This document shows positions 25,418-63,545 of a stretch of DNA of 64,000 nt, piece by piece. A program made the position numbers and the translations under genes. The stretch is taken from NCBI GenBank assembly GCA_029261055.1, contig JAJDCA010000044.1, forward strand, positions 13,867 to 77,866. The letters run 5' to 3'. The stretch comes from Candidatus Omnitrophota bacterium (lineage in GTDB: Bacteria > Omnitrophota > Gorgyraeia > Zapsychrales > Zapsychraceae). Below the pieces are notes generated by a model. That model had not been told where the DNA came from. It did no database searches and worked only from the letters and a program-made list of their open reading frames with translations. Each line of letters begins with the position of its first letter. Positions within the stretch are counted from its first letter, which is position 1.

Positions 25418-25419
25418 TC

Positions 25420-28462: not shown

Positions 28463-28463
28463 A

Positions 28464-29594: not shown

Positions 29595-29606
29595 GAGAAA
29601 GCACAT

Positions 29607-34111: not shown

Positions 34112-34148
34112 ATAAGGGGGCATTATTAATTTAATAATGCCCCCTTAT
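34112..34148. repeat. Perfect 18-bp-arm inverted repeat (ATAAGGGGGCATTATTAA / TTAATAATGCCCCCTTAT), related to the GGGCAT..ATGCCC family
   Basis: Read directly from the sequence between the two OMP genes. No flanking U-run in either orientation. Confidence 0.6.
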
Positions 34149-34821: not shown

Positions 34822-34934
34822 TTAAATTAATTCCCTAATCCCGGGCGACCTAAAATAAAAAATGTCATGGTTCCGGGGCGATACGGCAATGTTGGAAACG
34901 ACATTGTTTCCCGACAATTGGAAAGGAATTAGAC

Positions 34935-39417: not shown

Positions 39418-39423
39418 AATTAT

Positions 39424-39490
39424 GGGCATGATAAATCATGCCCGTACAACGAGGTCGTGTTGTCCGTAGGGGCATAATTTATTATGCCCA
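39424..39490. repeat. REP-like stacked palindromic element, copy 2
   Basis: GGGCATGATAAATCATGCCCGTACAACG is identical to copy 1. It is followed by ACAAC..GTTGT and GGGGCATAAT-TT-ATTATGCCC palindromes. Sits in the Rieske-cytochrome b intergenic region. Confidence 0.6.
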
Positions 39491-39526
39491 ATATAAAATT
39501 ATCTTATCGATATCTGGAAATAATTA

Positions 39527-41065: not shown

Positions 41066-41118
41066 TGAGCACATAATTTATGGAGCGTAAGCGAACATAA
41101 ATTATCTGTGCGAATTAA

Positions 41119-41159
41119 CCCTGCGAAGCTCAACGCGAAAGCAATTGAGCGAAGCAGGG
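41119..41159 (+). promoter_or_regulatory. Structured 5' leader hairpin upstream of the decahaem cytochrome gene
   Basis: CCCTGC-GAA-GCTCAA-C-GC[GAAA]GC-AA-TTGAGC-GAA-GCAGGG forms a two-tier stem with symmetric GAA/GAA internal loops and a GNRA tetraloop. GC-rich in an AT-rich region. Confidence 0.4.
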
Positions 41160-41168
41160 TAAAATAAT

Positions 41169-43745: not shown

Positions 43746-43754
43746 GAGATTATT

Positions 43755-46421
43755 ATGCCAAAATCTAAGGGATCTATAACACGAAGAAATTTTTTGAAAG
43801 GAACTGTCGCTGGCGCAGCCGCGTTAGGCATGTCGGATACATTGTTTAGCCCGACTAAGGTCATGGCCGAGGAATTAGGCCTTGTTAATAAAGTTATCGA
43901 GATGCCGGCACAATGTCCCTATTGTGGCGTCGGGTGTGGCTCCATTATTAAATTTGATCAAAAATCTGCAAAGATTATCGGCGTTGTCCCGGATAAACAA
44001 CATCCAACCAATAAAGGCGTGCAATGCATTAAAGGATTAAATGCCGACGAACCAACTTATGTTGATCGACTTAAAAAAGTCTTAGTACGAAAAGATATGA
44101 GTGATCCTTTAAGAGGGTATGTATCTAAATCTAAAGGTAGCTTTGATGACAAAGATTTTCATGAAGTTTCTTTTGAAGAAGCCGAAGAATTGGTCGCCCA
44201 TAAAATGGGGGAAATTTACAAAGCACATGGTGGCAACAGTATTGGATTATACGGTTCAGGCCAATTGACCGTTGAAGCGCAGTGGATCGAAAACAAACTC
44301 GTTAAAGGTGTTTTAGGTTCCAACTCCATTGAAGCGAATGCCCGTATGTGTATGACGTCGGCTGTAACGGGCTATTTTGCAACCTTAGGCAGTGACACCC
44401 CACCACTTTCGTATGACGATATTGAAATGTCGGATATGATTACCTTCTGGGGGCACAATCCTCGAGGAGCTCACCCGATTGTCTTTTGGCGTGTGGCAGA
44501 TCATAAAAAATCTAAAGACATCCCAACCGTTGTGTCTGATCCCAGAAGAACAGGATCTGTGCAAGCTTTAGAAGGCATTAATCCACGGAATAGTTTTCAT
44601 TTTCAAAGTATCAACGGTGATATTTCGATTTTAAACGCCATCGGCCATGTTCTCATTAAAGATCATGAAGATATTATTGATTATCCTTTCTTAAAAGAAC
44701 ATGTAACAGGTTGGCAAAAATACGTGAAGATGGTCACAGAAGAATACTCTCCGGAACAAGTACAAGATCGTTCAATGGTAGATCCGCAGCTTATACGCAC
44801 GGTCGCCGCTCAATGGGCAGATGCGACGCGTAAACGCAAACGCCGTGGAACTGGTGGCGTCATTTCTTTCTGGGGTATTGGTTATAATCAACATCTGCAT
44901 GGACAGCATAATGTCATTAGCCTTATTAATCTCCATGCCTTAACAGGCAATATTGCTAAGCCGGGATGTGGTCCATTCTCCATGACAGGACAACCAAATG
45001 CCATGGGTGAACGACTTATGGGGGGATTAACAGGACGCCTTCCTTTTAATATCGGCATAGAGAATGAAAAACATCGTGATTGGATTGGAAAAATTTGGAA
45101 TGTTCCCAAAGAACGTATGGACAAAATGGCGATGGAGAAAAATCCTGGAATGATGATCGGTTTATTTGAACGAGCAATGAAAGGTGATGTAAAGGGTATG
45201 TTTTATATGTACACAACCCATATTCATCAACCGGATCTGAATACATTGATTCGACCTGCTCTTTCTAAATTATTTCTTGTTGTCCAAGATATTTACCGGC
45301 ATGCCCCGAATAACCTTTATGGCGATGTCATCTTTCCAGCTTTGACCTGGGGTGAATGGCAGGGGGGAACATACATTAGTTCAGAAAGACGATTTAACGT
45401 CGTTGACGGTATTGGAAAAGGTGCACCCGGACTTGAAAATTGTGTTCCTGATCTTGATTTGGCCATTGATAAAGGAAAAAAATTGGCCAATATAGTCGGT
45501 TTAGACGGCGATAAAATTTTCCCTTATAAAAAGAAAAAATTTCATCCAGATGGGCCCATGCTTTATGATTCTGAAGAAGTGTTTGAAGAAATCATACGAG
45601 GTTCTAAGGGAACGGATGCTGATTTAACAGGTATGTTAGAAGTGCGCGATCGTGACGGTATCGGCCTTTATGAGCAACTTCGTCGTTTAAGAGGCATGCA
45701 ATGGCCGGCGCCAACCTATGAAATAGCCAAACAAGGCGGCGTTAAACGACGCTATATGGGGCAAGAAGGATGGAAAGATAAAACATATGGTATGTTTCGG
45801 CATAAGGACGGTAAGTTGCATATGAAAGCTTGCCAACAGGATTATTCTAAAAGAAAAGAAGTTACGGCTGAATTAGAAAAATTTGGAACAGTAGAAGGTT
45901 ATTATACCATTGATCATCCGGAAGTATTAACCAAGGCGCGCGATATGGCCCTCACACCGGAGATGCCGGATTCTGAAGATCTTGGAAAACATTGGAAAGA
46001 AATCCCGAAAAATAAATACCCGTTCTGGCTTGGTTTAGGAATCGTGTATGAACATTTTCATACAGCCAAAACGATTCGCGGCGCAACCACTCGACGTTTG
46101 GTACCGGAACAGTATGTAGAAATGCATCCGGATGACGCCGAAGAAAATGGTCTGCGTGATGGAGATCAAATAAAGGTTATTACACGACGGGGCGAATATC
46201 AAGGGCGTGTCAGTGTCGGGGGGTATCGTAGTAAAGTCAAGCCGGCACGAAATGAAGTGCCGAAAGGATACATTTTTTCTCCATGGAATTTATCTGTGGC
46301 GGATTCGGCAGATCCGAAAAAAAATAAATGGTTAGTTAATGCCGTTTCTCACAGAGCCTATGATCCTGTTTCCGGTCAAGCTGACTTCAAAAAACTTGCG
46401 GCTCGGATTGAAAAGATTTAA
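43755..46421 (+). CDS. Divergent periplasmic NapA-like bis-MGD molybdoenzyme (nitrate-reductase-like; substrate not proven)
   Basis: 888 aa. TAT signal (ITRRNFLKGTVAGAAALG). N-terminal 4Fe-4S box CPYCGVGCG ... C-x-KG aligned to NapA. NARMCMTSAV aligns to the NapA Mo-ligand cysteine region (NARLCMASAV in the canonical NapA at 61197). Confidence 0.85.
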   Translation: MPKSKGSITRRNFLKGTVAGAAALGMSDTLFSPTKVMAEELGLVNKVIEMPAQCPYCGVGCGSIIKFDQKSAKIIGVVPDKQHPTNKGVQCIKGLNADEPTYVDRLKKVLVRKDMSDPLRGYVSKSKGSFDDKDFHEVSFEEAEELVAHKMGEIYKAHGGNSIGLYGSGQLTVEAQWIENKLVKGVLGSNSIEANARMCMTSAVTGYFATLGSDTPPLSYDDIEMSDMITFWGHNPRGAHPIVFWRVADHKKSKDIPTVVSDPRRTGSVQALEGINPRNSFHFQSINGDISILNAIGHVLIKDHEDIIDYPFLKEHVTGWQKYVKMVTEEYSPEQVQDRSMVDPQLIRTVAAQWADATRKRKRRGTGGVISFWGIGYNQHLHGQHNVISLINLHALTGNIAKPGCGPFSMTGQPNAMGERLMGGLTGRLPFNIGIENEKHRDWIGKIWNVPKERMDKMAMEKNPGMMIGLFERAMKGDVKGMFYMYTTHIHQPDLNTLIRPALSKLFLVVQDIYRHAPNNLYGDVIFPALTWGEWQGGTYISSERRFNVVDGIGKGAPGLENCVPDLDLAIDKGKKLANIVGLDGDKIFPYKKKKFHPDGPMLYDSEEVFEEIIRGSKGTDADLTGMLEVRDRDGIGLYEQLRRLRGMQWPAPTYEIAKQGGVKRRYMGQEGWKDKTYGMFRHKDGKLHMKACQQDYSKRKEVTAELEKFGTVEGYYTIDHPEVLTKARDMALTPEMPDSEDLGKHWKEIPKNKYPFWLGLGIVYEHFHTAKTIRGATTRRLVPEQYVEMHPDDAEENGLRDGDQIKVITRRGEYQGRVSVGGYRSKVKPARNEVPKGYIFSPWNLSVADSADPKKNKWLVNAVSHRAYDPVSGQADFKKLAARIEKI

Positions 46422-46490: not shown

Positions 46491-46583
46491 TCTATGCAAG
46501 AAAATCGCCTTTGTCGATAACCTGAAGGCGTATTTTTGGTGCCGATAGGAAAGTTTTATACTTTCCTATACGGGCAAAAAATT

Positions 46584-47171
46584 ATGATCAGAAGAAATTT
46601 TATTAAACGCACCTTAATATTTTTTGCCGCGAGTACTCTTTATTCACTCATGGGAAACCATGTGGTCTTTGGAAAAACCAGAAAAATATTCAAGAAATAT
46701 TTACGCCCCCCCGGAGCTCTTCCTGAAAAAGATTTTTTAGCGACGTGTATTAATTGTCATCGTTGCGGACAAGCCTGCCCCAGCGATTGTATTCAGTACA
46801 TTAATGATCCATTAAATCCTTCAATGCACGACACGCCCTACATTAATCCACGACAGAAGGCTTGTATTCTTTGCATGAAATGCACACAAGCCTGCCCGTC
46901 AGGATCTTTACAACGTATTGATAATGATGATTCCGATTCTATTCACAAACACGTAAAAATGGGAATTGCGGTTGTGGATACAAATATTTGCAATTCTTAC
47001 AATGGATATTCCTGCGGCGTATGTATCCGGGCTTGTCCTTTAGGAGAAGAAACTTTAAAAACAGGCAACTGGGAACGTCCAATCGTTAACCCTGATAACT
47101 GTGTTGGCTGCGGGCTTTGTGAACAAAGCTGTATTCACTATCCACAGGCGATAAGGGTAGAACCGATATGA
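46584..47171 (+). CDS. napG: NapG/MauM-like periplasmic 4x[4Fe-4S] ferredoxin, TAT-exported
   Basis: MIRRNFIKRTLIFFAAS TAT-like signal. Four ferredoxin boxes (CINCHRCGQACP, CILCMKCTQACP, CGVCIRACP, CVGCGLCEQSC). I set the start at the internal ATG rather than track ORF 46536. Confidence 0.75.
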   Translation: MIRRNFIKRTLIFFAASTLYSLMGNHVVFGKTRKIFKKYLRPPGALPEKDFLATCINCHRCGQACPSDCIQYINDPLNPSMHDTPYINPRQKACILCMKCTQACPSGSLQRIDNDDSDSIHKHVKMGIAVVDTNICNSYNGYSCGVCIRACPLGEETLKTGNWERPIVNPDNCVGCGLCEQSCIHYPQAIRVEPI

Positions 47172-48598
47172 TCACAAAATTTCGACGACTAATTCAATGG
47201 AGTATTTTCTTAGGCATCATCCTCATTACTGTCTTAAATTATTACGAAAACCAAAAAGTAAAATATGGAGGAGAGTTGGTTATTCAAGAATCACCCATTT
47301 TACGGACTGTAGATAAAATTTTTGGGCAGCTTGAAAACCGCACAAAAATTGTCACTTTTTTACAAGGGGATGTTTGGTCGTTTCAAATAGGCTCTATTAA
47401 AATTACGGATCCATTGGCCTTTATTGGCAATATCAGTCGCACCAAAGCTATCTATTGGCCACTTTTTTTAGCCGCTTTAATCCCGATCATTCTGACAATT
47501 CTTTTAGGAAAAGTGTTTTGTAGTTGGATTTGTCCGATGGGACTTTTGTTTGAATTAAATGCAAAATTACGCACCGTGTTACAAAAATTCGCTTTACCGT
47601 TAGGTAATTTTACATTGCCTCCTTGGTGCAAATATATTGTATTAGGCGGTGGAATTTTTACAGGGCTTGTTTGGGGTGCCCATTATTTCTTTCTGATTTA
47701 TCCCCCCAAAATTATTTCCGGTGAAATTTATTTTAGTGTCATTAAATCTTCATTAGGATATGGCGTTGCATTTCTTTTTCTGCTTTTAGCGATTGAATTA
47801 TTTCTTGCCCCACGATTTTGGTGTCGTTCGCTTTGTCCCGGAGGGGCATTGTACACCTTATTGAGTCAATTTCGCTTTTTACGCATTAAAAACGATTTAA
47901 ATCGCTGCACAAACTGCGGCATTTGCGATACCTTGTGCCCATATGACATCACCCCGTCCAAAGGAAAATTATCATTGGAATGTGATCATTGTTCTCTATG
48001 TATTACTAAATGCCCAGTCAAAAGCCTTTCTTTTAAGATGCCCAACCGTACACACACCCCCGGGGTGTGTATATGGTTAATCTTAACCATGTGTCTTTTT
48101 TTCAATGCGACAACGGCATCAGCGCATCATATCCGCGGATTACCACATTATGGATATTCTGAAAATTATCCGCAGACGCCAACGTATGAAGAAATTCGTG
48201 TGGTTGATGATTGGAAAGTTAATTTTTCATATATAAAAATTTTTGAAACCAAAAATTGTGATTTAGCTGTTTATTTAAAAAATACAAAAACCGGGAAACC
48301 ATATGCTGGAAAAATTCGGTTTAAAGTTTTTGGCGAAAGGGAAGACCCTGAAGCTTCGCCTTATTATGATACGCATTTTGATCCAACCAATACGTTCCGC
48401 GTAGGATGGGCTTATGAATTGGATGGTGTTTACATTGTGAGAGCCCAATTTTTTGATGAAGGCAAAGAGTATATTGAAGATTTTCGTATGCAAATAGGCA
48501 AAGTTGGATTTAATCCGTTATGGTGGGCTATTCCAGGAATATTTGTTTTAATTTTAATCATATTAATTGCTGTGAAACAACGGAGGAGCTCTAAATGA
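47168..48598 (+). CDS. napH: NapH/MauN/CcoG(RdxA)-family membrane polyferredoxin with C-terminal periplasmic beta-domain and terminal TM
   Basis: TM helices with CSWICPMG and CRSLCPGG (CxxCP) motifs. Two ferredoxin boxes (CTNCGICDTLCP, CDHCSLCITKCP). ~170-aa C-terminal extension ending in a TM helix, as in CcoG/FixG. ATGA overlap with napG. Confidence 0.75.
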   Translation: MITKFRRLIQWSIFLGIILITVLNYYENQKVKYGGELVIQESPILRTVDKIFGQLENRTKIVTFLQGDVWSFQIGSIKITDPLAFIGNISRTKAIYWPLFLAALIPIILTILLGKVFCSWICPMGLLFELNAKLRTVLQKFALPLGNFTLPPWCKYIVLGGGIFTGLVWGAHYFFLIYPPKIISGEIYFSVIKSSLGYGVAFLFLLLAIELFLAPRFWCRSLCPGGALYTLLSQFRFLRIKNDLNRCTNCGICDTLCPYDITPSKGKLSLECDHCSLCITKCPVKSLSFKMPNRTHTPGVCIWLILTMCLFFNATTASAHHIRGLPHYGYSENYPQTPTYEEIRVVDDWKVNFSYIKIFETKNCDLAVYLKNTKTGKPYAGKIRFKVFGEREDPEASPYYDTHFDPTNTFRVGWAYELDGVYIVRAQFFDEGKEYIEDFRMQIGKVGFNPLWWAIPGIFVLILIILIAVKQRRSSK

Positions 48599-50121
48599 TT
48601 ATGTCGGGTTTACCAAAGTGGTTATTTTTTACAAGTATTGCGCTTGTGTTGATGATTTCATTTATCCTGGTAGAGTGGTTAAACCGATCCAATCGTAAGG
48701 CCAAGCCCTATCCTAAGTTTAACATTCTTTCCATTCCCGGCGTCAAGGCTTGTGTGAAGGCCCCATTTTTTAAATTCCTTTTTCAATTTCCTGTATTTTT
48801 AATTTTCTGCCTTATTATTTATGCCGGTATTTACGGACATGCCGTGATTAATATTGCCCCTGTATTGACTTGGACCATATGGTGGGCAGGACTCATTTTT
48901 CTAATTTTATTTTTTGGTAAGGCCTGGTGTTTTGTGTGTCCCTGGGATTTTGTCGCGACTCTTTTTCAATATTTAAAACCATTCGGTGTCAGCAAAAAAC
49001 CTTTTACATTGGGATATAAATGGCCAAGGTGGCTGAAGAATATTTATTTGGCTATTGGATTATTCGTTCTCTTAACATGGTTTGAGCTAGGATATCATGT
49101 GACGGCCTCACCACGCTTTACAGCAATATTAGCGATTGTCATTGTTTTTCTCTCCGTCATTCCGGCTTTAATTTTCGAAAAACGTTCTTTTTGTAAATAC
49201 GGGTGCCTCATTGGACGCATTTCAGGATTGTATGCCATGTTTTCACCTGTGGAAGTGCGCAGTGCAGACTTGGATGTATGTACAAAATGCAAGACAAAAG
49301 ATTGTTATACCGGAAATGATAAAGGTAATGCTTGCCCAACATCACTTGTGATTCCTCAAATCAAAGAAAATACCTATTGTATTTTATGTACAGAATGTGT
49401 CAAAAGTTGTCCGCACGATAATGTCGCCATTAATGTACGCCCCTTTGCAACGGATTTGAAAAATTTTACAAAAGTAAAAAGTGATGAAGCCATACTGGCC
49501 ATTATTCTTTTGGCCTTAACATCCTTTCATGGACTCACCATGACCCCACTGTGGGATTCACCGACAGGTAATTCAATAATCCATTCTATACGTTCCATCA
49601 CAGGATTTGGACCATTAGGGGCCTTTACATTAGGCATGTTTTGTGTGAATGCAGCGTTAGGTTTATTTTATTATCTAATCGCCTTAATTACACAACGATT
49701 TGTCGGAGAGCCGCAGGTTTCAACTAAAAAAGTTTTTTTGTATTACGCCTATTCTTTGCTACCCATTGCTTTGTTTTATCACTTAGCGCATAATGCCATG
49801 CATGTATTCATGGAGGGGCAAGTTGTCGTCCCCTTAATTTCGGATCCATTAGGGCAGGGTAATAATTTCTTTGGCACGGCGCAATGGTATTTGGCACCGC
49901 TGTTATCACACAGCAGCATTTGGTATCTGCAGGTGGGACTTGTCCTCATCGGACATATTTTTGGTATTATTATCGCGCATCATGTTTCACGAAAACTTTA
50001 TTCTGATCGCAGGGCCGCCATACGATCATTAGTTCCTATGCTCATCGGCATGATTTTTTACTCATTTCTTTCCTTATGGATTATGCATTTGGATATGAAT
50101 ATGCGGAGTAGTTTGATGTGA
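48595..50121 (+). CDS. Second NapH/MauN-family membrane polyferredoxin with extra C-terminal His-rich TM helices
   Basis: CFVCPWD and CKYGCLIG CxxCP-type motifs in TM context. Ferredoxin box CILCTECVKSCP. The C-terminal ~200 aa have 4 additional TM helices carrying conserved His (HLAHNAMH, GHIFGIIIAHH). Confidence 0.7.
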   Translation: MIMSGLPKWLFFTSIALVLMISFILVEWLNRSNRKAKPYPKFNILSIPGVKACVKAPFFKFLFQFPVFLIFCLIIYAGIYGHAVINIAPVLTWTIWWAGLIFLILFFGKAWCFVCPWDFVATLFQYLKPFGVSKKPFTLGYKWPRWLKNIYLAIGLFVLLTWFELGYHVTASPRFTAILAIVIVFLSVIPALIFEKRSFCKYGCLIGRISGLYAMFSPVEVRSADLDVCTKCKTKDCYTGNDKGNACPTSLVIPQIKENTYCILCTECVKSCPHDNVAINVRPFATDLKNFTKVKSDEAILAIILLALTSFHGLTMTPLWDSPTGNSIIHSIRSITGFGPLGAFTLGMFCVNAALGLFYYLIALITQRFVGEPQVSTKKVFLYYAYSLLPIALFYHLAHNAMHVFMEGQVVVPLISDPLGQGNNFFGTAQWYLAPLLSHSSIWYLQVGLVLIGHIFGIIIAHHVSRKLYSDRRAAIRSLVPMLIGMIFYSFLSLWIMHLDMNMRSSLM

Positions 50122-50705
50122 CCAAAGAAAACCTTTCCCGACGAGATTTTTTTAAAAAAGGATTAAAGTCGTTGGCTCAAGGCGCCAAGGAAACCGCCAC
50201 GATTTTATATTCATCGGAAGAACCCATTACGCCCAGCCGAACTCTTGTACGCCCTCCCGGAGCATTACCTGAAAAAGAATTTCTTGAAAAATGCACACGA
50301 TGTAATGAATGTGTGAAAGTCTGTCCTGAAGAATCCATTATGAAATTTGTCGGCGAAGAATCGCCCCTGCATTTAACACCCATGCTTTCCGTGCGTAAAT
50401 CACCGTGTGTGCTTTGTGAAGATTTTCCGTGTATCAAAGTATGCGAACCCGAAGCCTTAGTGATGCCGGCTGCACGTGAAGAAGTAAAAATGGGCATAGC
50501 GGTGATTAATGAAAAACTTTGTTATGCCTGGCAAGGGGGCCAAGATTGTGATTACTGTATTAAAGAATGCCCCATAGGAGAAAAAGCTATTTATTTTGAT
50601 GAAGTACGCCGGCCGCATGTATCGTCGGAACATTGTACTGGCTGCGGATGCTGTGAATATATTTGTCCCAGTCGTCAACCGGCGATTGTTGTCGGCACGC
50701 GTTAA
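50118..50705 (+). CDS. Second NapG/MauM-like periplasmic 4x[4Fe-4S] ferredoxin, TAT-exported
   Basis: SRRDFFKKGLKSLA TAT signal. Boxes CTRCNECVKVCP, CVLCEDFPCIKVC, CDYCIKECP, CTGCGCCEYICP. Confidence 0.75.
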   Translation: MTKENLSRRDFFKKGLKSLAQGAKETATILYSSEEPITPSRTLVRPPGALPEKEFLEKCTRCNECVKVCPEESIMKFVGEESPLHLTPMLSVRKSPCVLCEDFPCIKVCEPEALVMPAAREEVKMGIAVINEKLCYAWQGGQDCDYCIKECPIGEKAIYFDEVRRPHVSSEHCTGCGCCEYICPSRQPAIVVGTR

Positions 50706-52147: not shown

Positions 52148-52238
52148 TGGTGGAAACGCTCCATCTAAAGTATAGTATTCGCAATACAAATCAAAACTTT
52201 TTCAAACTTTAACTTGAGACGAGAGGGGTTCTCTCAAA

Positions 52239-52487
52239 ATGTCTAAATTTGTTGTGCGAATACTATATTACGCTATTTTAAAAGAAAAACGGGGATTATC
52301 GGAAGAAAGCATTAACACTCAAGCAGTTACTGCGTTAGATCTTTATCAAGAACTCAAAGATCGACATTCGTTTGATTTATCCTCCAAATCATTAAAAGTA
52401 GCGATCAATGATGAATTTACCTCTTGGGATACGCGTTTACAGGCAGAGGATACTGTCATTTTCATCCCGCCGGTAGCTGGAGGCTAG
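52239..52487 (+). CDS. moaD: MoaD/ThiS-family sulfur-carrier protein (molybdopterin synthase small subunit)
   Basis: 82 aa ending in ...PPVAGG (C-terminal Gly-Gly), the hallmark of MoaD/ThiS. Confidence 0.65.
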   Translation: MSKFVVRILYYAILKEKRGLSEESINTQAVTALDLYQELKDRHSFDLSSKSLKVAINDEFTSWDTRLQAEDTVIFIPPVAGG

Positions 52488-52493
52488 CACTTC

Positions 52494-56194: not shown

Positions 56195-56368
56195 ATTTTT
56201 TATGAATGTTTACAAAACAATTACATAACTATTTGTTATCAAACGAATAAGTAAAAAATATGTAACTATTTATTTACATAATACTTATGCCATAGTACGA
56301 TTAATTTACTTTTTTAAGCCTTCTTTATAAATATAAACTTCGTTAAATATTAGATAGACAACGTTTTA

Positions 56369-56938
56369 ATGAACTCATCAAAAAAATATTACTGGCCAAT
56401 TATCATCGTTTTTGTATTACTGGCATTGAGTTTTGTTCTTGATATGTGGGGAAAACCTATCAAAATTAAACAAAATCCAACCGTTGATTCAAAATTTTTA
56501 TCCCACGATACTGTACGTGATCCGTTAGTCCATGGCGCAAAAATTGAGCAAGCAGGATTTAAATACAATTGTAATGAGTGTCATGCTTATCTACAACCTC
56601 CCGAGACCCCTAAAAAATTAATCGGTGCGCATCAGCACATTGTTCTTAAACATGGTATCAATGATAATTGCTTCAAGTGTCATCATCGTACAAAACGGGA
56701 ATCATTAGTCGACATTTATGGCACAGAAGTGCCGTTTAAACAAAGTGCTCAATTGTGTCAAAAATGCCATGGACCAAAATACCGAGATTGGAAGGCTGGT
56801 GTCCATGGACGGCCAAGTGGCTATTGGGATAAGACTAAAGGGGAGACAATAAAACCGACCTGTGCCGCCTGTCACAATCCTCATGCACCAAAATTTCAAC
56901 CAATTGAGCCGGCACCAGCACCGGCAGGAAATCATTAA
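56369..56938 (+). CDS. Membrane-anchored tetrahaem c-type cytochrome (NrfB/NrfH/NapC-like electron-transfer subunit)
   Basis: N-terminal TM (YWPIIIVFVLLALSFVL). Four CxxCH motifs (CNECHA, CFKCHH, CQKCHG, CAACHN) within 189 aa. Confidence 0.8.
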   Translation: MNSSKKYYWPIIIVFVLLALSFVLDMWGKPIKIKQNPTVDSKFLSHDTVRDPLVHGAKIEQAGFKYNCNECHAYLQPPETPKKLIGAHQHIVLKHGINDNCFKCHHRTKRESLVDIYGTEVPFKQSAQLCQKCHGPKYRDWKAGVHGRPSGYWDKTKGETIKPTCAACHNPHAPKFQPIEPAPAPAGNH

Positions 56939-56942
56939 GAAT

Positions 56943-57893
56943 ATGAGCGAAGAAAATAAAGAAAACAATGACAATCCTTTAAATACTGGACCGATAAGCC
57001 GTAGAGATTTCCTTAAGCGCGGGGCTGTTTTAACCTCCGGTATTACAGCTATGGTGGCCGCCCTTTCGCCATTGAAACAGCTTGAAGATACATTTGATAT
57101 GGAGGAGTTTGTTCAGAAACATTACAAAGAATTAACCCCAAAAGAAATGGAAGGGGTTTTAAAACGCATTGCTAAAAAAGTCGAAAAGAAATATGGAACA
57201 ACCCCAAACGTCCAAGATATCAAACCACAAGAAGGGGTGGAATTTTCCTATGCCTTAAATCTTTCCCGTTGTATTGGATGCCGTCGTTGCGTGCATGCCT
57301 GTGTTGATGAAAACAATCAATCACGCAGTCCTGAAGTCCAGTACATCCGTGTCTTAAAAATGCCACAGGGAACCATGGATATGGAAAAGGGTGACCATCA
57401 TTACAATGTAAAGAAAGTACCCGAAGAAGGACATTTTTATATGCCGGTTCAATGTCATCAATGCGAAAAACCACCCTGTGTTAAAGTTTGTCCCGTTGAA
57501 GCGACTTGGCAAGAACCAGATGGCATCACGGTTATCGATTACGACTGGTGTATCGGTTGCCGGTATTGTGAAGCAGCCTGTCCTTATTGGGCCAGACGAT
57601 TTAATTTTTCCGAGCCTTCCATTCCTAAAGAAAAGATAAATCCAAACATGAATTATTTATCTAATCGTCCCCGATCTAAAGGGGTTATGGAAAAATGTCA
57701 TTTTTGTTTACAACGGACACGCGAAGGAAAACTTCCCGCGTGTTTAGAAGTTTGCCCAACAGGGTCGCGAACATTCGGTAATATTTTGGATCCTGAAAGT
57801 GAAATTTCCTATATATTGAAAAACAAACGTGTGTTTGTTTTAAAAGAAGAGGCAGGGACTCTGCCGAGATTTTTTTATTACTTTGATAAATAA
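56943..57893 (+). CDS. NrfC/HybA-like periplasmic 4x[4Fe-4S] subunit, TAT-exported
   Basis: TAT signal (ISRRDFLKRGAVLTSG). Boxes CIGCRRCVHAC, CHQCEKPPCVKVCP, CIGCRYCEAACP, CHFCLQR ... CLEVCPTG. I set the start at the ATG at 56943, after the stop of the cytochrome gene, rather than track ORF 56862. Confidence 0.85.
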   Translation: MSEENKENNDNPLNTGPISRRDFLKRGAVLTSGITAMVAALSPLKQLEDTFDMEEFVQKHYKELTPKEMEGVLKRIAKKVEKKYGTTPNVQDIKPQEGVEFSYALNLSRCIGCRRCVHACVDENNQSRSPEVQYIRVLKMPQGTMDMEKGDHHYNVKKVPEEGHFYMPVQCHQCEKPPCVKVCPVEATWQEPDGITVIDYDWCIGCRYCEAACPYWARRFNFSEPSIPKEKINPNMNYLSNRPRSKGVMEKCHFCLQRTREGKLPACLEVCPTGSRTFGNILDPESEISYILKNKRVFVLKEEAGTLPRFFYYFDK

Positions 57894-59125
57894 TGGCTAA
57901 AGCACTCCTAAATTATATCTCTTTTCTTTGCCGATGCGTTGCCATCAGCTTTAAAGGTTCAACTAGGTTTTATGCCTGGATGACATTCTTAACGGTTTTA
58001 ACGCTTATTGGATTGAATGCCTACTGTAAACAACTTGTGCATGGTTTGCATATGACGGGGATGACGGATCAAGTTTCTTGGGGCGCTTACATTGCCAATT
58101 TTACATATTTAGTCGGTATGGCTGCTGCAGCCGTCATGCTTGTGATTCCGGTATATTTATACAAAAATAAAGAGTTAGAAGACGTTGTCATTATTGGTGA
58201 ACTTTTTGCCATTGCCGCCATTATTATGGCTCTTTTATTTGTAGTGGTGGATTTAGGTCGTCCAGACCGATTTTGGCATTTAATTCCGTTTATTGGAAAA
58301 TTTAACTGGCCAATTTCCATGCTGAGTTGGGATGTTGTTGTTCTTAATATTTATCTTCTTTTAAATATGCATGTATGCGGTTATTTGCTTTACATGCGCT
58401 ACTTAAGACGTAAGCCGACCAAAGCATTCTATTTACCCTTTGTGTTTATTTCCATTATTTGGGCTGTTAGCATTCATACGGTGACCGCATTTTTATTTGC
58501 CGGATTAGGAGGGCGTCCATTTTGGAATACGGCTATTTTGGGACCACGCTTTATTGCGTCAGCCTTTGTTTCCGGTCCGGCTTTTATTGTCTTGTCGTTA
58601 CAGTTTATTCGACGTTTTAGCGATTACAAAATTGCAGACCAAGCTTTATTTACATTGCGTAAATTAATGCAAGTGGCTATGCTCATCAGCTTTTTTCTAT
58701 TCTTAAATGAATTTTTTGTTGAACTTTACACCGATTCTTTGCATGTAGCGTCCATGCAATATTTATTTTTTGGTTTGCATGGCCACAATGCATTAGTGCC
58801 CTGGATTTGGACAGCGATTGCATTTAATTTTACGGCTTTAATTTTATTTGTTTTACCAGCTTCGCGGAGTATTAAATGGCTTAACTTAGCTTGTATTTTA
58901 TCGGTAGTCGGCATATGGATTGAAAAAGGGATGGGGCTTATTATCCCGGGATTTATTCCAACACCTTTGGGAGAAATTGTGGAATACACGCCTTCATGGA
59001 ATGAAATATTGATTTGTGTCGGTATTTGGGCTTTTGGATTTTTGATTTATACAATTTTATTAAAAACATCGATTCCTGTATTACTAGGTAAGTTGCATAT
59101 TAAACATAAAGAGGCAAAGAAGTAA
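57893..59125 (+). CDS. NrfD-family polytopic membrane quinol dehydrogenase subunit
   Basis: 410 aa with ~10 TM helices. TAATG overlap with the FeS subunit, the same gene order as E. coli nrfC-nrfD. Confidence 0.8.
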   Translation: MAKALLNYISFLCRCVAISFKGSTRFYAWMTFLTVLTLIGLNAYCKQLVHGLHMTGMTDQVSWGAYIANFTYLVGMAAAAVMLVIPVYLYKNKELEDVVIIGELFAIAAIIMALLFVVVDLGRPDRFWHLIPFIGKFNWPISMLSWDVVVLNIYLLLNMHVCGYLLYMRYLRRKPTKAFYLPFVFISIIWAVSIHTVTAFLFAGLGGRPFWNTAILGPRFIASAFVSGPAFIVLSLQFIRRFSDYKIADQALFTLRKLMQVAMLISFFLFLNEFFVELYTDSLHVASMQYLFFGLHGHNALVPWIWTAIAFNFTALILFVLPASRSIKWLNLACILSVVGIWIEKGMGLIIPGFIPTPLGEIVEYTPSWNEILICVGIWAFGFLIYTILLKTSIPVLLGKLHIKHKEAKK

Positions 59126-59216
59126 GAGGCAAGAGGCAGAGAAAAAAACTATAAAATAAAAAAATTCTTTAATTTTTTTATCTTTGCTTCTTATCTCTTT
59201 GATTTTTACTTCTCTT
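59108..59216. repeat. Purine-arm / pyrimidine-arm inverted-repeat element, copy A (overlaps the 3' end of the NrfD-like gene and the intergenic region)
   Basis: AAAGAGGCAAAGAAGTAAGAGGCAAGAGGCAGAGAAAAAAA, then an AT-rich spacer, then TCTTTGCTTCTTATCTCTTTGATTTTTACTTCTCTT. Related to copies B and C. Confidence 0.55.
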
Positions 59217-59232
59217 AAAAAAGGAGGATGGC

Positions 59233-60678
59233 ATGAAGCAAAAAATTTTAACATTTATTATCGGAACGGTTTTTGTTCTATGCGTTTCACAAGCCCAAGC
59301 CGGCATGTTCGGGCCAAGTGAAAAAACTGCTCAGACAAAAAAATGTCTGGACTGTCACAAAACAGAAACCCCGGTTATTACCCAACAATGGGGTGCCAGC
59401 AAACATTATCGAGGTAATGTTGGATGTTTTGAATGTCACAACGCAGAAAAAAATGACAAGGATGCATTCAAGCATTATGGAGAGTATATTTCAACAATTG
59501 TTTCTCCTAAAGATTGTGCCCGTTGTCATCAAAAGGAAGTTTCTGAGTTTGAAGATTCTCACCATTCTAAGGGCGCACGAATTCTTGGTTCCTTAGACAA
59601 TCGTTTGGCCGAGGTGGTCGAAGGAAATAATCAGTTTGTGACCCCTGGTTTTCCTGAAGGGAATTCATCGGCTGCAGTTAATGGCTGTTGGCAGTGTCAT
59701 GGGTCAGAAGTAAAAGTACTTTCTGGAGGAAAACTAGATCCTGCAACATGGCCAAACTCCGGTATTGGACGGATTAACCCGGATGGTTCTGAAGGTTCTT
59801 GCTCAGCCTGCCATTCTCGTCATCGATTTTCTGTTGAACAAGCCCGTAATCCAGAAAATTGTGGTAAATGCCATATGGGACCGGATCATCCACAAATTGA
59901 AATTTATGAAGAGTCAAAGCACGGCATTGCATTTCATGCCAATAAAGACAAAATGAATATGGCCAATGAAAAATGGGTTCTAGGAGAAGATTACAATGCT
60001 GCTCCGACGTGTGCCACATGCCATATGAGTGCAACGCCTGATCAAGACGTCACACACGATGTAGGGTTACGTATCAGCTGGAATAACCGCCCAATTACAT
60101 CAATCCGTCCTGAAGTATCTGATGCTAAAATGGGATTGCCTGGAAAAGATATTTTATGGGAAGAACGCCGGGCTAATATGAAAAATGTATGTTTAAATTG
60201 TCACAATCAATCTTATGTAGATAATTTTTACACTCAATATGACAGCTTAATTGAACTCTACAATGAAAAATTTGCTAAACCTGGGAAAGCGTTAATGGCT
60301 TTAGCTAAACCTTTGCTTAAACCAGTTGTGTTTGGAAACAAACTTGATTTTATCTGGTTTGAAATTTGGCACCATGAAGGCCGTCGAGCTCGTCACGGGG
60401 CTTCAATGATGGGCCCAGATTATACACATTGGCATGGAACTTATGAAGTTGCCAAAAACTTCTACACTGAATTAATTCCAGAACTAGAAGAGCTTGCCGA
60501 AAAATACCTTCATTCTAACATTGAAGAAAAAAAGGCTCAGGCTAAAAAATTACAATCAAAAATTAATGAAGTTCTAAACTCTGATGATCATAAATGGTAT
60601 ATTAATAAAATGGATCCTGCAGAGATGCAAAAACGGAAAGCTGCACAGAAAGAGTTTAAGGAAAGATATTCAAAATAA
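59233..60678 (+). CDS. Periplasmic octahaem c-type cytochrome (HAO/epsilon-Hao / octahaem nitrite- or tetrathionate-reductase superfamily; subfamily not resolved)
   Basis: Signal peptide. Eight CxxCH motifs (CLDCHK, CFECHN, CARCHQ, CWQCHG, CSACHS, CGKCHM, CATCHM, CLNCHN) in 481 aa. Confidence 0.85.
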   Translation: MKQKILTFIIGTVFVLCVSQAQAGMFGPSEKTAQTKKCLDCHKTETPVITQQWGASKHYRGNVGCFECHNAEKNDKDAFKHYGEYISTIVSPKDCARCHQKEVSEFEDSHHSKGARILGSLDNRLAEVVEGNNQFVTPGFPEGNSSAAVNGCWQCHGSEVKVLSGGKLDPATWPNSGIGRINPDGSEGSCSACHSRHRFSVEQARNPENCGKCHMGPDHPQIEIYEESKHGIAFHANKDKMNMANEKWVLGEDYNAAPTCATCHMSATPDQDVTHDVGLRISWNNRPITSIRPEVSDAKMGLPGKDILWEERRANMKNVCLNCHNQSYVDNFYTQYDSLIELYNEKFAKPGKALMALAKPLLKPVVFGNKLDFIWFEIWHHEGRRARHGASMMGPDYTHWHGTYEVAKNFYTELIPELEELAEKYLHSNIEEKKAQAKKLQSKINEVLNSDDHKWYINKMDPAEMQKRKAAQKEFKERYSK

Positions 60679-60848
60679 GAGAATCAGAGAGGTAAAGAGG
60701 TAAGAAGCAGAGATAAAAAACAGAGAATAACTTACTCTAAAAAAAGCAGTAAAATATAGAAACAAGCCTCAGAGAAATAATAAGGTCAATTAATTTAATT
60801 TTGTTTTTTCTCTGCACCTTTGTTTCTTACACCTCTGCTTCTTTAAAA
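60677..60848. repeat. Purine-arm / pyrimidine-arm inverted-repeat element, copy B (entire octahaem-napD intergenic region)
   Basis: Purine arm AGAGGTAAAGAGGTAAGAAGCAGAGATAAAAAAC. Downstream pyrimidine arm TTTTGTTTTTTCTCTGCACCTTTGTTTCTTACACCTCTGCTTCTTT is its imperfect reverse complement. Confidence 0.6.
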
Positions 60849-60852
60849 AACA

Positions 60853-61125
60853 ATGCCAATATCCAGTCTAATCATAAAAACACAAAAACAAGAAATCCAA
60901 AAGGTGGCCGATGAATTGCGCCGACTTAAAGGAACGATTGTTTCTGATGTACTAGATGAAAATATTGTGGTGGTAACCGAAACTGAAGATCGTAAAGAAG
61001 ATAAATCGCTTTGGGACCAAATGGAAAAAATCTCTGGCGTTATGCAAGTCGATTTGATTTACCATAACTTTGAAGATGCTGAAGAGAATCAAGAGGCAAA
61101 GATACAAGAAGCAGAGATAAAATAA
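60853..61125 (+). CDS. napD: NapD-like TAT-signal-binding chaperone for NapA
   Basis: 90 aa. Lies immediately upstream of napA. Small ferredoxin-like alpha/beta pattern (IVSDVLDENIVVVTE ... GVMQVDLIYHNFED). Assigned by position and size, so confidence is moderate. Confidence 0.55.
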   Translation: MPISSLIIKTQKQEIQKVADELRRLKGTIVSDVLDENIVVVTETEDRKEDKSLWDQMEKISGVMQVDLIYHNFEDAEENQEAKIQEAEIK

Positions 61126-61180
61126 TATTATTTTTTTGTTTTTTCTCTGCTTCTTGCTTCTATACAACTTGCTTCTTGTT
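61081..61180. repeat. Purine-arm / pyrimidine-arm inverted-repeat element, copy C (3' end of napD to the napA leader)
   Basis: CAAGAAGCAGAG (61104-61115) and CTCTGCTTCTTG form a perfect 12-bp inverted repeat around an AT loop. TTTTGTTTTTTCTCTGC is shared verbatim with copy B. Confidence 0.6.
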
Positions 61181-61196
61181 AGAGAGGAGTTAACAA

Positions 61197-63545
61197 ATGA
61201 CTAATTTTACCCGTCGAGAATTTCTTAAAATGTCCGCACAGATGGCCGCATTGGCGGCATTAGGGTTAAGTACTCTAAACTCTACTGTTGCCGAGGCTGA
61301 AGAAGTGGCTGATGGTTTAACCTGGCAAAAAGCACCTTGCCGTTTCTGTGGAACAGGATGTGGTGTCATGGTAGGTGTTAAAAAAGGGCGTGTTGTAGCT
61401 GTTCAAGGTGATCGCGAAAATCCTGTTAACCGCGGTTTATTATGTGCCAAAGGATATCATGTTGGTGCGGCCTTGTATGGAGCCGATCGTTTAAAACGGC
61501 CTATGCTGCGCAAAGGTGGAAAACTCCAACCGGTTTCATGGGATCTAGCCATTAACACAATAGCTGATAAAATCGTCGAAGACCCCACACGCTTTGCCAT
61601 TTATGGTTCCGGTCAATGGACCATTCCCGAAGGCTTTACCGCCATGAAATTTCTTAAAGGTGGGTTAGGAAGTAATCACATTGATCCTAATGCCCGACTG
61701 TGTATGGCCAGTGCCGTGGTTGGATTCATCAAGACCTTTGGCGTAGATGAACCTTCCGGATGTTACGATGATTTAGATAGTTGTGATACGGTCATCTGTT
61801 GGGGGAATAACTGGGCGGAAATGCATCCGATTTTATATTCCCGTTTTATCGACCGCAAAAATAAATTTGAGAAAGTTACTATGGTCGATATGGCCACACG
61901 CCGAACACGCACAACGGAAGCCGCAGACCATTACATTGAATTCCGCCCCCAATCTGATCTCGCTATTGCCAACGGTATTTGTTATCTGCTTCTTAAAAAT
62001 AAAACTTACGATGCAAAATTTGTAGCCGAACGGGCACGATTTAAATCGAACGATGGAAAAGATATTACTTTAGATCAATACTTCGAATTTCTGAAAGATT
62101 ACACCCCGGAAAAAGTGTCCAAAATATCGAATGTGCCTGTCGGGCAGATTAAAATGTTGGCGGATATTTTTGCTGATCCCAAACGCAAAGTTGTATCTTT
62201 GTGGTGCATGGGCATGAATCAGCACACACGGGGAACGTGGATTAATAATCTTGTTTATAATGTCCATCTTCTAGCTGGAAAAATCGGAAAACCAGGCAGC
62301 ACGCCATTTTCCTTAACGGGTCAACCCAGTGCCTGTGGCACATGTCGAGAAGTCGGAACATTGGCACATGCCTTACCCGGTGGCCGTGTGGTTAAAAATG
62401 AAGGACACCGCAAAGAGGCCGAAGAATTATGGAATCTCAAGCCTGGCACGATCAATCCAAAACCCGGATTTCATACGGTTAAAATGTTTAAGGCCTTGGC
62501 CTCAGGGGACATTACCGGTATGTGGGTTCAAGTGACTAATCCAGGCCAGTCCATGCCGAATTTAAATTTGACCCTTCAAAAGGCAAATGATCGTTTTTTT
62601 GTGGTCTCAGAGATCTATCCAACGGCTACTACAAAATATGCCGATGTTGTTTTACCGTCATCTACCTGGGTTGAAAAAAATGGTCTTTTTGGCAATACAG
62701 AGCGTCGTACACAGCAATGGTTCAAGATGATTGAACCTCCAGGTGAAGCGCGGGATGATGTCTGGCAGATGTTAGCCGTAGCCCGTAAGTTGTACGAAAA
62801 AGGCTTTGAAGGCATGAAAAATAAAGACGGTGAATTTTTATTTACCATGCGTGATGAAAAGGGTAAAGAAATTCACCATTGGAAATGGGATGTTTACAAA
62901 AAACATAATATCGATAAAATCCTTTTTGAAGAATATCGCCCTTTTACAACTAAGAAACATAAAGATATTGCCCCGTACGATGTATATGTTGAAAATCGTG
63001 GTTTACGATGGCCCGTGGTTCAAAATGGCAACGGTCAATGGAAAGAAACCAAACGACGCTTTGTGGAAGGCGAAGATCCTTTTGTAGAAAAAGGGGACGG
63101 CATTTCTTTTTACATGGCCAAGGCTGGCGACAAAAAAGCTATTATTTGGGCACGCCCGTATGAAGCCCCACCCGAGGTGCCCGATGAACAATATCCATTT
63201 TGGTTGTGTACAGGACGCGTCCTTGAACATTGGCATACCGGTACAATGACCGGCCGTGTTAAAGAATTAAAAAATGCCATGCCGCATGCCTTTGTGGATA
63301 TTCATCCAGCGGATGCCGAAAATCTCGGTGTCTACAATGGAGACCGTGTACGCATTAAATCCCGACGAGGATCCATAACACTTCCGGTGTCAGTCAACGG
63401 TCGTTCCGTGCCACAAAAAGGTTTAGTTTTTGTTCCATTTTTCGATGAAGCCAAATTGATTAACCAAGTGACCTTAGAAGCCTATTGTCCTTTGTCTAAA
63501 GAGCCAGATTATAAAAAATGTGCGGTTTTAATTGAGAAAGTTTAA
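61197..63545 (+). CDS. napA: Periplasmic nitrate reductase catalytic subunit
   Basis: TAT signal (TRREFLKMSAQMAALAALG). CRFCGTGCGV ... LLCAKG FeS box. HIDPNARLCMASAVVGF Mo-Cys region. TGRVLEHWHTG C-terminal motif. All are classic NapA signatures. Confidence 0.95.
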   Translation: MTNFTRREFLKMSAQMAALAALGLSTLNSTVAEAEEVADGLTWQKAPCRFCGTGCGVMVGVKKGRVVAVQGDRENPVNRGLLCAKGYHVGAALYGADRLKRPMLRKGGKLQPVSWDLAINTIADKIVEDPTRFAIYGSGQWTIPEGFTAMKFLKGGLGSNHIDPNARLCMASAVVGFIKTFGVDEPSGCYDDLDSCDTVICWGNNWAEMHPILYSRFIDRKNKFEKVTMVDMATRRTRTTEAADHYIEFRPQSDLAIANGICYLLLKNKTYDAKFVAERARFKSNDGKDITLDQYFEFLKDYTPEKVSKISNVPVGQIKMLADIFADPKRKVVSLWCMGMNQHTRGTWINNLVYNVHLLAGKIGKPGSTPFSLTGQPSACGTCREVGTLAHALPGGRVVKNEGHRKEAEELWNLKPGTINPKPGFHTVKMFKALASGDITGMWVQVTNPGQSMPNLNLTLQKANDRFFVVSEIYPTATTKYADVVLPSSTWVEKNGLFGNTERRTQQWFKMIEPPGEARDDVWQMLAVARKLYEKGFEGMKNKDGEFLFTMRDEKGKEIHHWKWDVYKKHNIDKILFEEYRPFTTKKHKDIAPYDVYVENRGLRWPVVQNGNGQWKETKRRFVEGEDPFVEKGDGISFYMAKAGDKKAIIWARPYEAPPEVPDEQYPFWLCTGRVLEHWHTGTMTGRVKELKNAMPHAFVDIHPADAENLGVYNGDRVRIKSRRGSITLPVSVNGRSVPQKGLVFVPFFDEAKLINQVTLEAYCPLSKEPDYKKCAVLIEKV

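Follow-up and report, generated by a model that had tools for sequence, protein, structure and literature searches.

Three consecutive intergenic regions of a respiratory gene cluster in Candidatus Omnitrophota bacterium (GenBank assembly GCA_029261055.1, contig JAJDCA010000044.1, positions 13,867 to 77,866) each contain a tract rich in purines and, beyond an AT-rich centre, a complementary tract rich in pyrimidines. The stretch analysed, 64,000 nucleotides long, is called the window below, and coordinates given without a locus number refer to it. The three palindromic elements (A, B and C) follow the genes for an NrfD-like membrane subunit, an octahaem cytochrome c and NapD, respectively, and are probably copies of a small dispersed repeat. 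The window has a G+C content of 39.5%, and the genes of the cluster are co-directional. The elements, the surrounding genes and one related array in valS are as follows.

56369-56938: gene for a small multihaem cytochrome c
56862-57893: gene for an FeS protein
57893-59125, plus strand: gene for an NrfD-like membrane subunit (Pfam NrfD, 1.6e-43), stop codon at 59123-59125
59110-59213, minus strand: element A, an imperfect palindrome at the nrfD-like/octahaem junction, inverted with respect to B and C; purine arm about 59109-59148, AT-rich centre 59149-59172, pyrimidine arm about 59173-59216
59233-60678, plus strand: gene for an octahaem (hydroxylamine-oxidoreductase-like) cytochrome c, between A and B (Pfam Multi-haem_cyto, 7.8e-25), stop codon at 60676-60678
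60686-60844: hairpin B overall, a composite of a solo purine arm and a full element
60686-60727, plus strand: solo purine arm (half element) after the octahaem stop codon, forming the outer stem of hairpin B with 60823-60844
60758-60845, plus strand: element B proper, oriented as C; purine arm 60758-60780, pyrimidine arm 60799-60845
60853-61125, plus strand: napD (Pfam NapD spanning residues 2-75 of 90), stop codon at 61123-61125
61090-61178, plus strand: element C at the napD/napA junction; purine arm 61090-61122, within the napD open reading frame (ORF), pyrimidine arm 61135-61178
61197-63545, plus strand: napA (Pfam Molybdopterin, 7.8e-65)
8834-8867, plus strand: orphan purine heptamer array (AGAAGCA, 4.7 copies by Tandem Repeats Finder), in frame inside valS (7406-10075)

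A napB-like ORF lies downstream of napA. By direct reading of the sequence, the Shine-Dalgarno sequence of napA, GAGAGGAG, is located at 61184-61191, just beyond the pyrimidine arm of C.

Structure of the elements

The elements measure about 90-160 nt. Their arms are composed of degenerate heptamers (AAGARGC and GCYTCTT, in units of 7-8 nt), and the purine arm terminates near the loop in GCAGAGA(A/T)AAAA. Tandem Repeats Finder assigns a period of 7 to AAGAGGC (4.1 copies at 59109-59138) and to TTCTTGC (4.9 copies at 61143-61178), and scores some arm stretches as period 8, 13 or 15. A repeat finder places the purine tracts at the three gene ends, the solo purine arm included, in one 31-nt direct-repeat family (71-87% identity), and the pyrimidine tracts in a 36-nt family (61-78% identity). 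The 12-mer AAGAAGCAGAGA occurs 9 times in the window with at most one mismatch, against 0.18 occurrences expected (about 50-fold; maximum of 2 in 100 shuffles). The initial annotation had described a related purine motif at the three gene ends, each followed by a reverse-complementary pyrimidine tract, and the two repeat families and the 12-mer counts bear this description out.

Each element folds into a long hairpin, as had also been proposed there. Compared with 200 dinucleotide shuffles, the fold of A (-31.0 kcal/mol) has a z-score of -3.0, with 2 of the 200 shuffles equally good, while B (-43.9 kcal/mol; z -4.5) and C (-39.6 kcal/mol; z -5.6) are equalled by none. The stems are 25-45 bp long and have about 35-40% G+C. 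The perfect stem in C, first given as 12 bp, extends over 13 bp (61105-61117 with 61144-61156). C is the longest inverted repeat of the window, and its palindromy continues right through the centre, where 61119-61134 form a perfect 16-nt palindrome. When 60670-60855 is folded, the solo purine arm forms the outer stem of B, and the inner hairpin is found at 60770-60814. The earlier description of three single copies is therefore appropriate for A and C, while B is a composite of a half element and a full one.

The element occurs in no other intergenic region of the window, nor in three further respiratory or molybdoenzyme loci (27716-32788, 38956-46421 and 46536-50705). The orphan array in valS encodes a loop insertion of 11-12 residues (IKRSKNQEARS...), which is present neither in T. 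thermophilus ValRS nor in nine of ten aligned homologues; the homologue P0122 has a different insertion at this site. The array and the purine arm of C have the 14-mer GAATCAAGAGGCAA in common. The set is counted as three copies, a solo arm and, in valS, an orphan array in frame.

No Rfam 15 family matches A, B or C at its gathering threshold, the sole threshold match in the window being a Moco riboswitch located elsewhere. With matches up to E 1 admitted, nothing is obtained for the elements but eukaryotic miRNA-precursor hairpins, which score 18-26 bits where the thresholds are 62-184. A BLAST search of element A against plasmids gives no match. Three other identifications were dropped: a CRISPR array, as the units are contiguous and without spacers; an assembly artefact, as the reading frames on both sides are continuous; and a PyrR-binding loop, considered for the likeness of AUCAGAGAGGU in B, as there is no Rfam PyrR match.

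Orthologous loci and the relationship of the copies

The insertion status of the elements may be seen from 87 orthologous octahaem/nap loci (517,284 nt), 7 of them obtained by exact protein look-up and 80 from metagenomes. None of the 87 contains purine/pyrimidine inverted tracts in either polarity, according to a detector run over all of this sequence, and an nhmmer profile of A, B and C has no match in any of them. The NrfD/octahaem junction is a 4-nt overlap in L125 and 15-19 nt long in L001, L118 and L119, compared to 107 nt in the window. The napD stop codon of L125 overlaps the ATG of the napA Tat signal peptide, compared to a gap of 71 nt in the window. Since the junctions overlap or are shorter than 20 nt in relatives, all three copies are demonstrated, at the level of sequence comparison, to be lineage-specific insertions.

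The insertions also account for the ends of two proteins. Element A supplies the last five or so codons of NrfD (KEAKK) and its stop codon, which lies inside the purine arm, and element C supplies the last 10 codons of napD (EAKIQEAEIK) and its stop codon. NapD of L125 ends in ...FEDLEETQP, and the 10 extra residues of the window protein lie beyond that end. The C-terminus of NrfD is ...LLGKLHIKHKEAKK in the window versus ...LLGKLNIELKYAKRNI in relatives, and diverges from four orthologues after ...LLGKL.I. In both proteins, divergence from the orthologues begins exactly at the start of the arm, and the tails are translations of the purine arm. In contrast, the octahaem protein has its native C-terminus (...KERYSK), which is conserved in seven orthologues. 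The earlier claim that the motif shapes the C-terminal codons at the three gene ends thus holds for NrfD and NapD, and does not hold for the octahaem protein. The odd C-termini of NrfD and NapD would be by-products of repeat insertion.

Comparison of the site of A with L001, L118 and L119 reveals no evident target-site duplication, and about 17 nt appear to have been replaced. The flanks of C have a weak similarity over 13 columns (9 matches; GAAGAGAATCAA versus GAGGAGTTAACAA), both being Shine-Dalgarno-like purine runs.

The three copies are related to each other over their full length. C aligns with the reverse complement of A with a score of 64 (43 in the forward direction), and with the inner part of B with a score of 63 in the forward direction (40 when reversed). 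With nhmmer, A scores 66.5 bits on the minus strand versus 22.2 on the plus strand, and B proper scores 56.6 bits on the plus strand. Moreover, B and C have two identical 17-mers that include non-repeat sequence (AAGAAGCAGAGATAAAA and TTTTGTTTTTTCTCTGC). Full-length alignment in a defined orientation argues for descent from one asymmetric palindrome. Judged by these alignments, A, B and C are shown to descend from a single asymmetric palindromic master, of which A is an inverted copy.

The arms of different copies are mutually complementary, as the initial annotation had stated. The pyrimidine arm of A (59174-59200) is complementary to the solo purine arm of B (60694-60720) over 27 nt (93%), and this pair brackets the octahaem gene; the purine arm of A (59125-59147) is complementary to the pyrimidine arm of C (61139-61161) over 23 nt (91%), and this pair brackets the octahaem gene and napD. 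When the whole 2.1-kb region is folded, the arms pair across copies, with energies of -48.7 kcal/mol (purine arm of A with pyrimidine arm of C) and -44.2 kcal/mol (purine arm of B with pyrimidine arm of A), compared to -31.5 and -35.9 kcal/mol within copies. The cross-copy duplexes are stronger than the within-copy ones because A is an inverted copy of an asymmetric palindrome. In other genomes, the cross-copy and within-copy energies are merely comparable, with no systematic cross-copy advantage.

The nearest relatives of the window proteins are found in Omnitrophota metagenome-assembled genomes (MAGs). The octahaem protein shares 82% identity with its counterpart in Omnitrophica WOR_2 GWA2_45_18 (64-82% among the homologues overall), and the G+C content of the cluster genes (0.36-0.44, with a window mean of 0.395) gives no compositional hint of recent transfer. 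The gene order varies: it is cytc-FeS-nrfD-octahaem-napD-napA-napB in the window (56369-63545), napD-napA-napB-cytc-FeS-nrfD-octahaem in L125 (52-7440), and octahaem-napA-napB, without napD, in L120 (1387-5855). The octahaem/napD junction occupied by element B is a lineage-specific one.

Arrays and palindromes of other sequence are also present in the orthologous loci. Directly after the octahaem stop codon, L125 (7441-7476; also L126) carries an array of GAATCGTG-like GAATGCTG (4.5 copies), L138 (1743-1774) carries GAAATCC (4.6 copies), and L127 (about 1520-1535) carries GGATTGGAAGATTGGAA. It seems that the junction after the octahaem stop codon is prone to short-period arrays. In L118, whose octahaem protein is 79% identical, 8 tandem CGTGAAR heptamers and then their inverted complement (2668-2765) lie upstream of a cytochrome c gene; they share the layout of A, B and C and their purine-first polarity but have a different unit. 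A composite palindrome (GTCATTCCCGC..GCGGGAATC..GATCCCCGA..TCGGGGATGAC) common to L118 (4535-4739) and L124 (1-125), which are related metagenome contigs, looks like another repeat resembling a miniature inverted-repeat transposable element, or MITE. At about 294-365 of L125, a stop codon in the napA frame directly follows the twin-arginine signal peptide, and the start assigned to napA by the gene caller is 165 nt further downstream; a frameshift or a fault in the assembly is the probable cause.

Related elements in other genomes

The pattern AAGARGCARAGA-N10-40-TCTYTGCYTCTT was scanned over a genome collection with one genome per species, and at least 116 stretches were obtained. Among the matches listed, many are ordinary single-copy A-tract/hairpin/T-tract terminators, for example in Firmicutes, and several genomes have multiple loci whose flanks extend as heptamer arrays. 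These genomes are Omnitrophota UBA10147 (5 loci), Omnitrophota STB_166, a third Omnitrophota MAG, a Planctomycetales MAG, Melainabacteria RIFCSPHIGHO2_02_FULL_34_12 and a few unclassified MAGs. The loci selected by the scan also contain additional elements not picked by the pattern, and at least 8 family members are present within about 40 kb of Omnitrophota UBA10147. A scan of viral contigs gives one match.

The nhmmer profile of A, B and C gives near full-length matches (model positions about 2-94) with E-values of 1e-8 to 1e-3, the best being L025 (1.8e-8), L058 (2.3e-8) and L048 (4.7e-8), followed by L111, L035, L010, L006, L087, L032, L065, L049, L041, L013 and L117. It matches none of the plain terminators in the scanned stretches. 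The loop-proximal GCAGAGA(A/T)AAAA recurs in the elements of other genomes, and its A-run is not demanded by the search pattern. Array lengths vary; for example, L049 has a pyrimidine array of 95 nt opposite a purine array of 23 nt.

The neighbours of these elements are housekeeping genes, such as priA, fmt and a galT-like gene, the pyrimidine genes pyrF, pyrD, pyrK, pyrB and pyrR, nrdR, an RND adaptor gene with acrB, an opp operon (solute-binding protein), rplT and recG. When both neighbours are defined, the element lies between co-directional genes in 15 of 16 cases, and in none between convergent genes. The elements occupy nearly the entire gap and frequently extend over the upstream stop codon, so that the protein ends in a tail such as KEARDKDAEKKK, SRSKETKK or LKKEKK.

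Every family member has the purine array first, an arrangement that is identical when read on either strand. The eight elements not chosen by the search pattern all have this order, and the loci examined, about 1.4 Mb, contain no pyrimidine-first element. Translations of purine arms have a mean hydropathy of -2.95 and 3.1 stops per 100 codons, and those of pyrimidine arms +2.01 and 0.1, respectively. It is plausible that, at an upstream stop codon, purine-first palindromes alone are harmless. In either orientation, read-through would add a short hydrophilic tail of K, E, R, Q, A and S, ending at a stop codon in the purine arm or the AT-rich centre, and such palindromes would survive at gene ends; a pyrimidine arm at that place would add a stop-free hydrophobic tail.

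Two further observations concern the family and its likenesses. The elements at 5425-5517 of L010 (Planctomycetales MAG) and 1572-1660 of L049 (Omnitrophota UBA10147) have near-identical arms of AGAGAGT arrays and unrelated loops, which could reflect convergence, horizontal spread or a binning problem. A second palindromic family, of GCAAAGA-type octamers (CACGCAAAG-N-GCAAAGA...TCTTTGC-N-CTTTGCGTG), also has the purine-rich array first and is multi-copy in several distant phyla: in a Promineifilum MAG (L036, L038, L064, L077, L091, L107 and L116), Blastocatellia (L004, L068 and L040), L069/L073, L014/L095/L113, Chlamydiae (L012 and L066) and Chitinophaga (L081 and L100). In titles and abstracts, the motif strings are found only in eukaryotic papers unrelated to bacterial repeats, and the searchable literature yielded no description of the motif or of such elements in Omnitrophota.

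Interpretation of the elements

A, B and C are probably best regarded as an undescribed relative of the intergenic heptamer-repeat arrays, similar to MITEs and to repetitive extragenic palindromes (REPs), which forms intercistronic RNA hairpins of generic effect or none. A miniature palindromic repeat colonising the locus had been the last of the possibilities offered by the initial annotation, and it is favoured by the insertion into short junctions, the common descent of the copies and the occurrence of the family elsewhere.

Under this interpretation, the repeat would spread by copy-and-paste, local recombination or gene conversion, and its arrays would then lengthen or shorten by slippage. 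The nrfD stop codon is part of the 5' arm of A, and the 5' arm of C lies wholly inside napD. Because the stop codons of both genes are within this arm or at its border, a translating ribosome would have to melt the hairpins of A and C, which would form only when the upstream cistron is untranslated. From the ends of the 3' arms to the following start codons there are 7-17 nt; the octahaem gene and napA would keep their Shine-Dalgarno sequences free, and a structured block would stand where relatives have overlapping, coupled genes. A likely generic consequence would be that the translational coupling of the relatives is broken. The elements could act at the RNA level as modulators of translational coupling, as barriers to decay by 3'-exonucleases, as RNase III substrates or as leaky terminators (A has a partial U-tract), or they may be tolerated passengers.

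Among known repeats, the heptameric intergenic arrays come closest and are similar in several respects: the units are tandem, 7 nt long, intergenic, often within operons and variable in copy number, two convergent arrays can form a stem-loop, and the distribution is patchy across phyla with no known vector. In Xanthomonas, GGGAATC arrays make up 70-75 convergent inverted pairs, in which the purine-rich array precedes the other and from which a stem-loop can form (PMC4692102). GGGGAYT arrays occur inside Nostoc operons, for example between pecE and pecF, the heptamers called STRR are found in Calothrix and Nostoc (PMC4692102, PMC4679880), and TAACTGA repeats have a patchy distribution over Beggiatoaceae, Cyanobacteria and Bacteroidetes (PMC4692102, PMC4679880). 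The present elements differ in that the unit is AAGARGC and does not form G-quadruplexes, in that the arrays are always paired in a compact palindrome with a conserved loop-proximal motif and copies alignable over their full length, and in that they overlap upstream stop codons. Their hosts (Omnitrophota, Planctomycetota and Melainabacteria) are not among the phyla reported for those arrays.

The REPs, bacterial interspersed mosaic elements (BIMEs) and REPINs of Proteobacteria are likewise short and imperfectly palindromic; they lie at the 3' ends of genes or separate co-transcribed ones, occur in either orientation and at times form clusters. Work on E. coli malEFG and on REPs and tmRNA reportedly found that a REP near a stop codon can lower the translation of the gene upstream. 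REPs differ in being G+C-rich 20-40-mers with a GTAG/GTGG-type tetranucleotide at the 5' end, tied to a REP-associated tyrosine transposase (RAYT). The arms described here are purine arrays of low G+C content and have no conserved tetranucleotide head; their position at gene 3' ends with co-directional neighbours is REP-like, and 3 copies are known from the 64 kb of this genome that were analysed. Hairpins of REP type in mRNA can stabilise the upstream mRNA, and small repeats that extend gene 3' ends or are fused in frame are documented (PMC3184786).

Similarly, MITEs and other palindromic elements (the Rickettsia palindromic elements, the Neisseria Correia elements and pneumococcal BOX, RUP and SPRITE) are of comparable size, non-coding, hairpin-forming and multi-copy, and the tails of NrfD and NapD, as well as the loop insertion in valS, behave like MITEs that enter coding regions. 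Here, unlike in MITEs, no target-site duplication is evident, no related insertion sequence is identified, and the arms are simple-sequence arrays seemingly able to expand. Terminal inverted repeats are present only in the trivial sense that the whole element is an imperfect palindrome, and none is distinct from the body. Intercistronic stem-loops of selective processing are known from the Rhodobacter puf operon. The corresponding stem-loops of the Clostridium cip-cel operon serve selective RNA processing and stabilisation (PMC4423207, PMC8219983). Those stem-loops, like the present ones, lie at the 3' ends of single cistrons of one operon, the position required for setting subunit stoichiometry. 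They are, however, locus-specific, with energies that correlate with transcript abundance, while A, B and C belong to a dispersed repeat that the orthologous operons lack.

Several points weigh against the dispersed-repeat reading. The three copies occupy three consecutive junctions out of 44, with none on the other 41 (p about 0.003; 42/13,244), and this clustering fits local spread but also a locus-level function. No target-site duplication was found at the copies, nor any transposase or RAYT gene: none of the ten scanned window ORFs of 114-221 residues is a RAYT (an IS200/IS605-like Y1 transposase), and no transposase was seen near any copy, with no systematic search for a parent insertion sequence made. 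In the source genome, the copies are known from the 64-kb window, so that spread over the whole genome of this organism would be an extrapolation. The low complexity of the arms makes the nhmmer E-values and the homology across genomes softer than they look, and, as is evident from the other 7-8-mer arrays that relatives carry after the octahaem stop codon, slippage by itself can build arrays in place. There is also no positive evidence that the RNA hairpin has been selected, as there is no bias between sense and antisense folding across 19 elements (sense better in 12 of 19; p 0.37). A consensus fold of the three copies is uninformative, these being just three sequences of low complexity: it has only 16 pairs, and its covariation term is +0.45 kcal/mol.

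The dispersed-repeat reading also leaves unexplained the strict purine-first polarity, the runs on consecutive junctions and the patchy cross-phylum distribution. Such runs are seen as well in the pyr operon of Omnitrophota UBA10147, in L006 and in L010, where they are weaker evidence, as these loci were selected for having a copy. Why the purine array is always first, why copies stand on consecutive junctions, and how near-identical palindromes occur in several phyla with no known mobilising enzyme are questions raised by these elements. A more far-reaching possibility, to which a low probability is given, is that they form an uncharacterised, self-propagating, cross-phylum class that targets the stop/start junctions of operons and spreads along consecutive junctions; as copies insert in both orientations, near-perfectly complementary arms at neighbouring junctions bracket single cistrons. 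If so, arm pairs in the mRNA could form long-range stalks, comparable to those from which RNase III excises 16S and 23S rRNA, and RNase III could cut operons into separately stable cistrons; on DNA, the arm pairs could act as recombination sites that reshuffle respiratory modules, and the gene order around element B does differ between the window genome and its relatives.

It is also unlikely that each array arose in place, by polymerase slippage followed by template switching that made it palindromic, independently at each junction and with no copied element. The period of 7 obtained with Tandem Repeats Finder, the wide variation in array length (as in L049), the palindromy through the centre of C, the other arrays after the same stop codon in L125/L126 and L138, and the equal architecture made from CGTGAAR units in L118 would all follow from such a process, and heptamer repeats are over-represented in bacterial intergenic DNA (PMC4692102). 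However, A, B and C align over their full length, non-repeat parts included, and in a defined orientation; B and C have identical 17-mers; and the GCAGAGA(A/T)AAAA motif recurs in the elements of other genomes, where the profile matches are full-length.

The reading preferred by the initial annotation was a dedicated cis-regulatory RNA (an attenuator, processing site or binding site), in which the hairpins and their alternative pairings would set how strongly the quinol-dehydrogenase, octahaem and Nap modules are expressed relative to one another. The copies do stand exactly at the boundaries of functional modules, on three consecutive junctions, the global fold pairs arms across copies so as to bracket single cistrons, and A, B and C each fold 2.8-4.7 kcal/mol better in the sense strand. 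Nevertheless, the element is absent from all 87 orthologous loci, whose junctions are too short to hold one, and from the three other respiratory loci of the window; the family is found elsewhere in pyr, opp, priA-fmt, nrdR, acrAB and rplT contexts; the cross-copy pairing is accounted for by the inversion of A and has no systematic advantage in other genomes; and no Rfam family matches. A switch dedicated to nitrate/nitrite respiration is not supported by these comparisons, because the element is missing from the orthologous loci and present in housekeeping operons elsewhere, and this reading is considered improbable.

An equally low probability is assigned to ordinary Rho-independent terminators or attenuators that share their sequence by chance. 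The hairpins are stable with U-rich 3' arms, UUGAUUUUUAC follows A, many single-copy pattern matches in Firmicutes are plain terminators, and the purine-first polarity is expected of a bidirectional terminator with an A-tract and a U-tract. However, a consensus terminator scan did not call A, B or C. The stems, in view of their length and low G+C content, and being palindromic through an AT-rich centre, are unlike the short G+C-rich stem of such terminators, which has a 3-8-nt loop and a U-tract directly behind it; a partial U-tract follows A, and none follows the stems of B and C. Furthermore, the sites lie between genes that overlap, and so are co-translated, in relatives, none of the 16 family members lies between convergent genes, and other gene-end hairpins of the window look conventional (e.g. 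34112-34148).

The NarL heptamer of enterobacterial nitrate regulation is TACYYMT, and the AAGARGC unit seems unlike it. That the arrays are DNA binding sites for a heptamer-recognising regulator (iteron-like or in a NarL 7-2-7-like arrangement) or a nucleoid protein is very improbable: the heptamer periodicity and inverted arrangement in a nitrate-related locus, the lack of a sense-strand fold bias and the binding of IHF and gyrase by REP/BIME elements (PMC3184786) would agree with it, but the arrays lie at gene 3' ends and in coding sequence, the promoter region (56195-56368) has none, and the family sits in unrelated operons.

If the elements are a dispersed repeat, as favoured here, the three hairpins of this respiratory cluster are not to be annotated as a pathway-specific riboswitch or attenuator. 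They would provide a clean example of how small palindromic repeats settle in the tightest operon junctions and rewrite gene ends, and one from Omnitrophota, a phylum that has been little studied. Should they alter mRNA decay or translational coupling, such repeats would be a widespread, overlooked cause of differences in operon stoichiometry between uncultured bacteria.

Some other features of the window are unrelated to A, B and C. A second hairpin type, GGGCAT...ATGCCC (AAGGGGGCATTATTAA/TTAATAATGCCCCCTT), recurs at 23285-23357, 34112-34148 and 39418-39526, and may be another small repeat family or the usual terminator form of this genome. The Moco riboswitch (Rfam RF01055, 44.5 bits) lies at 34820-34943, immediately 5' of a moaA-like radical-SAM gene (34935-35894). 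Small ORFs below the cut-off of 110 residues are present in the 'intergenic' stretches 7014-7405, 10076-10658, 11199-11501, 18696-19013, 25217-25419 and 52148-52493, which are unannotated small genes and not true spacers; examples are a nucleotidyltransferase-like ORF at about 7075-7390, two ORFs at 10089-10400 and 10403-10645, and a TatA-like ORF at 25253-25414.

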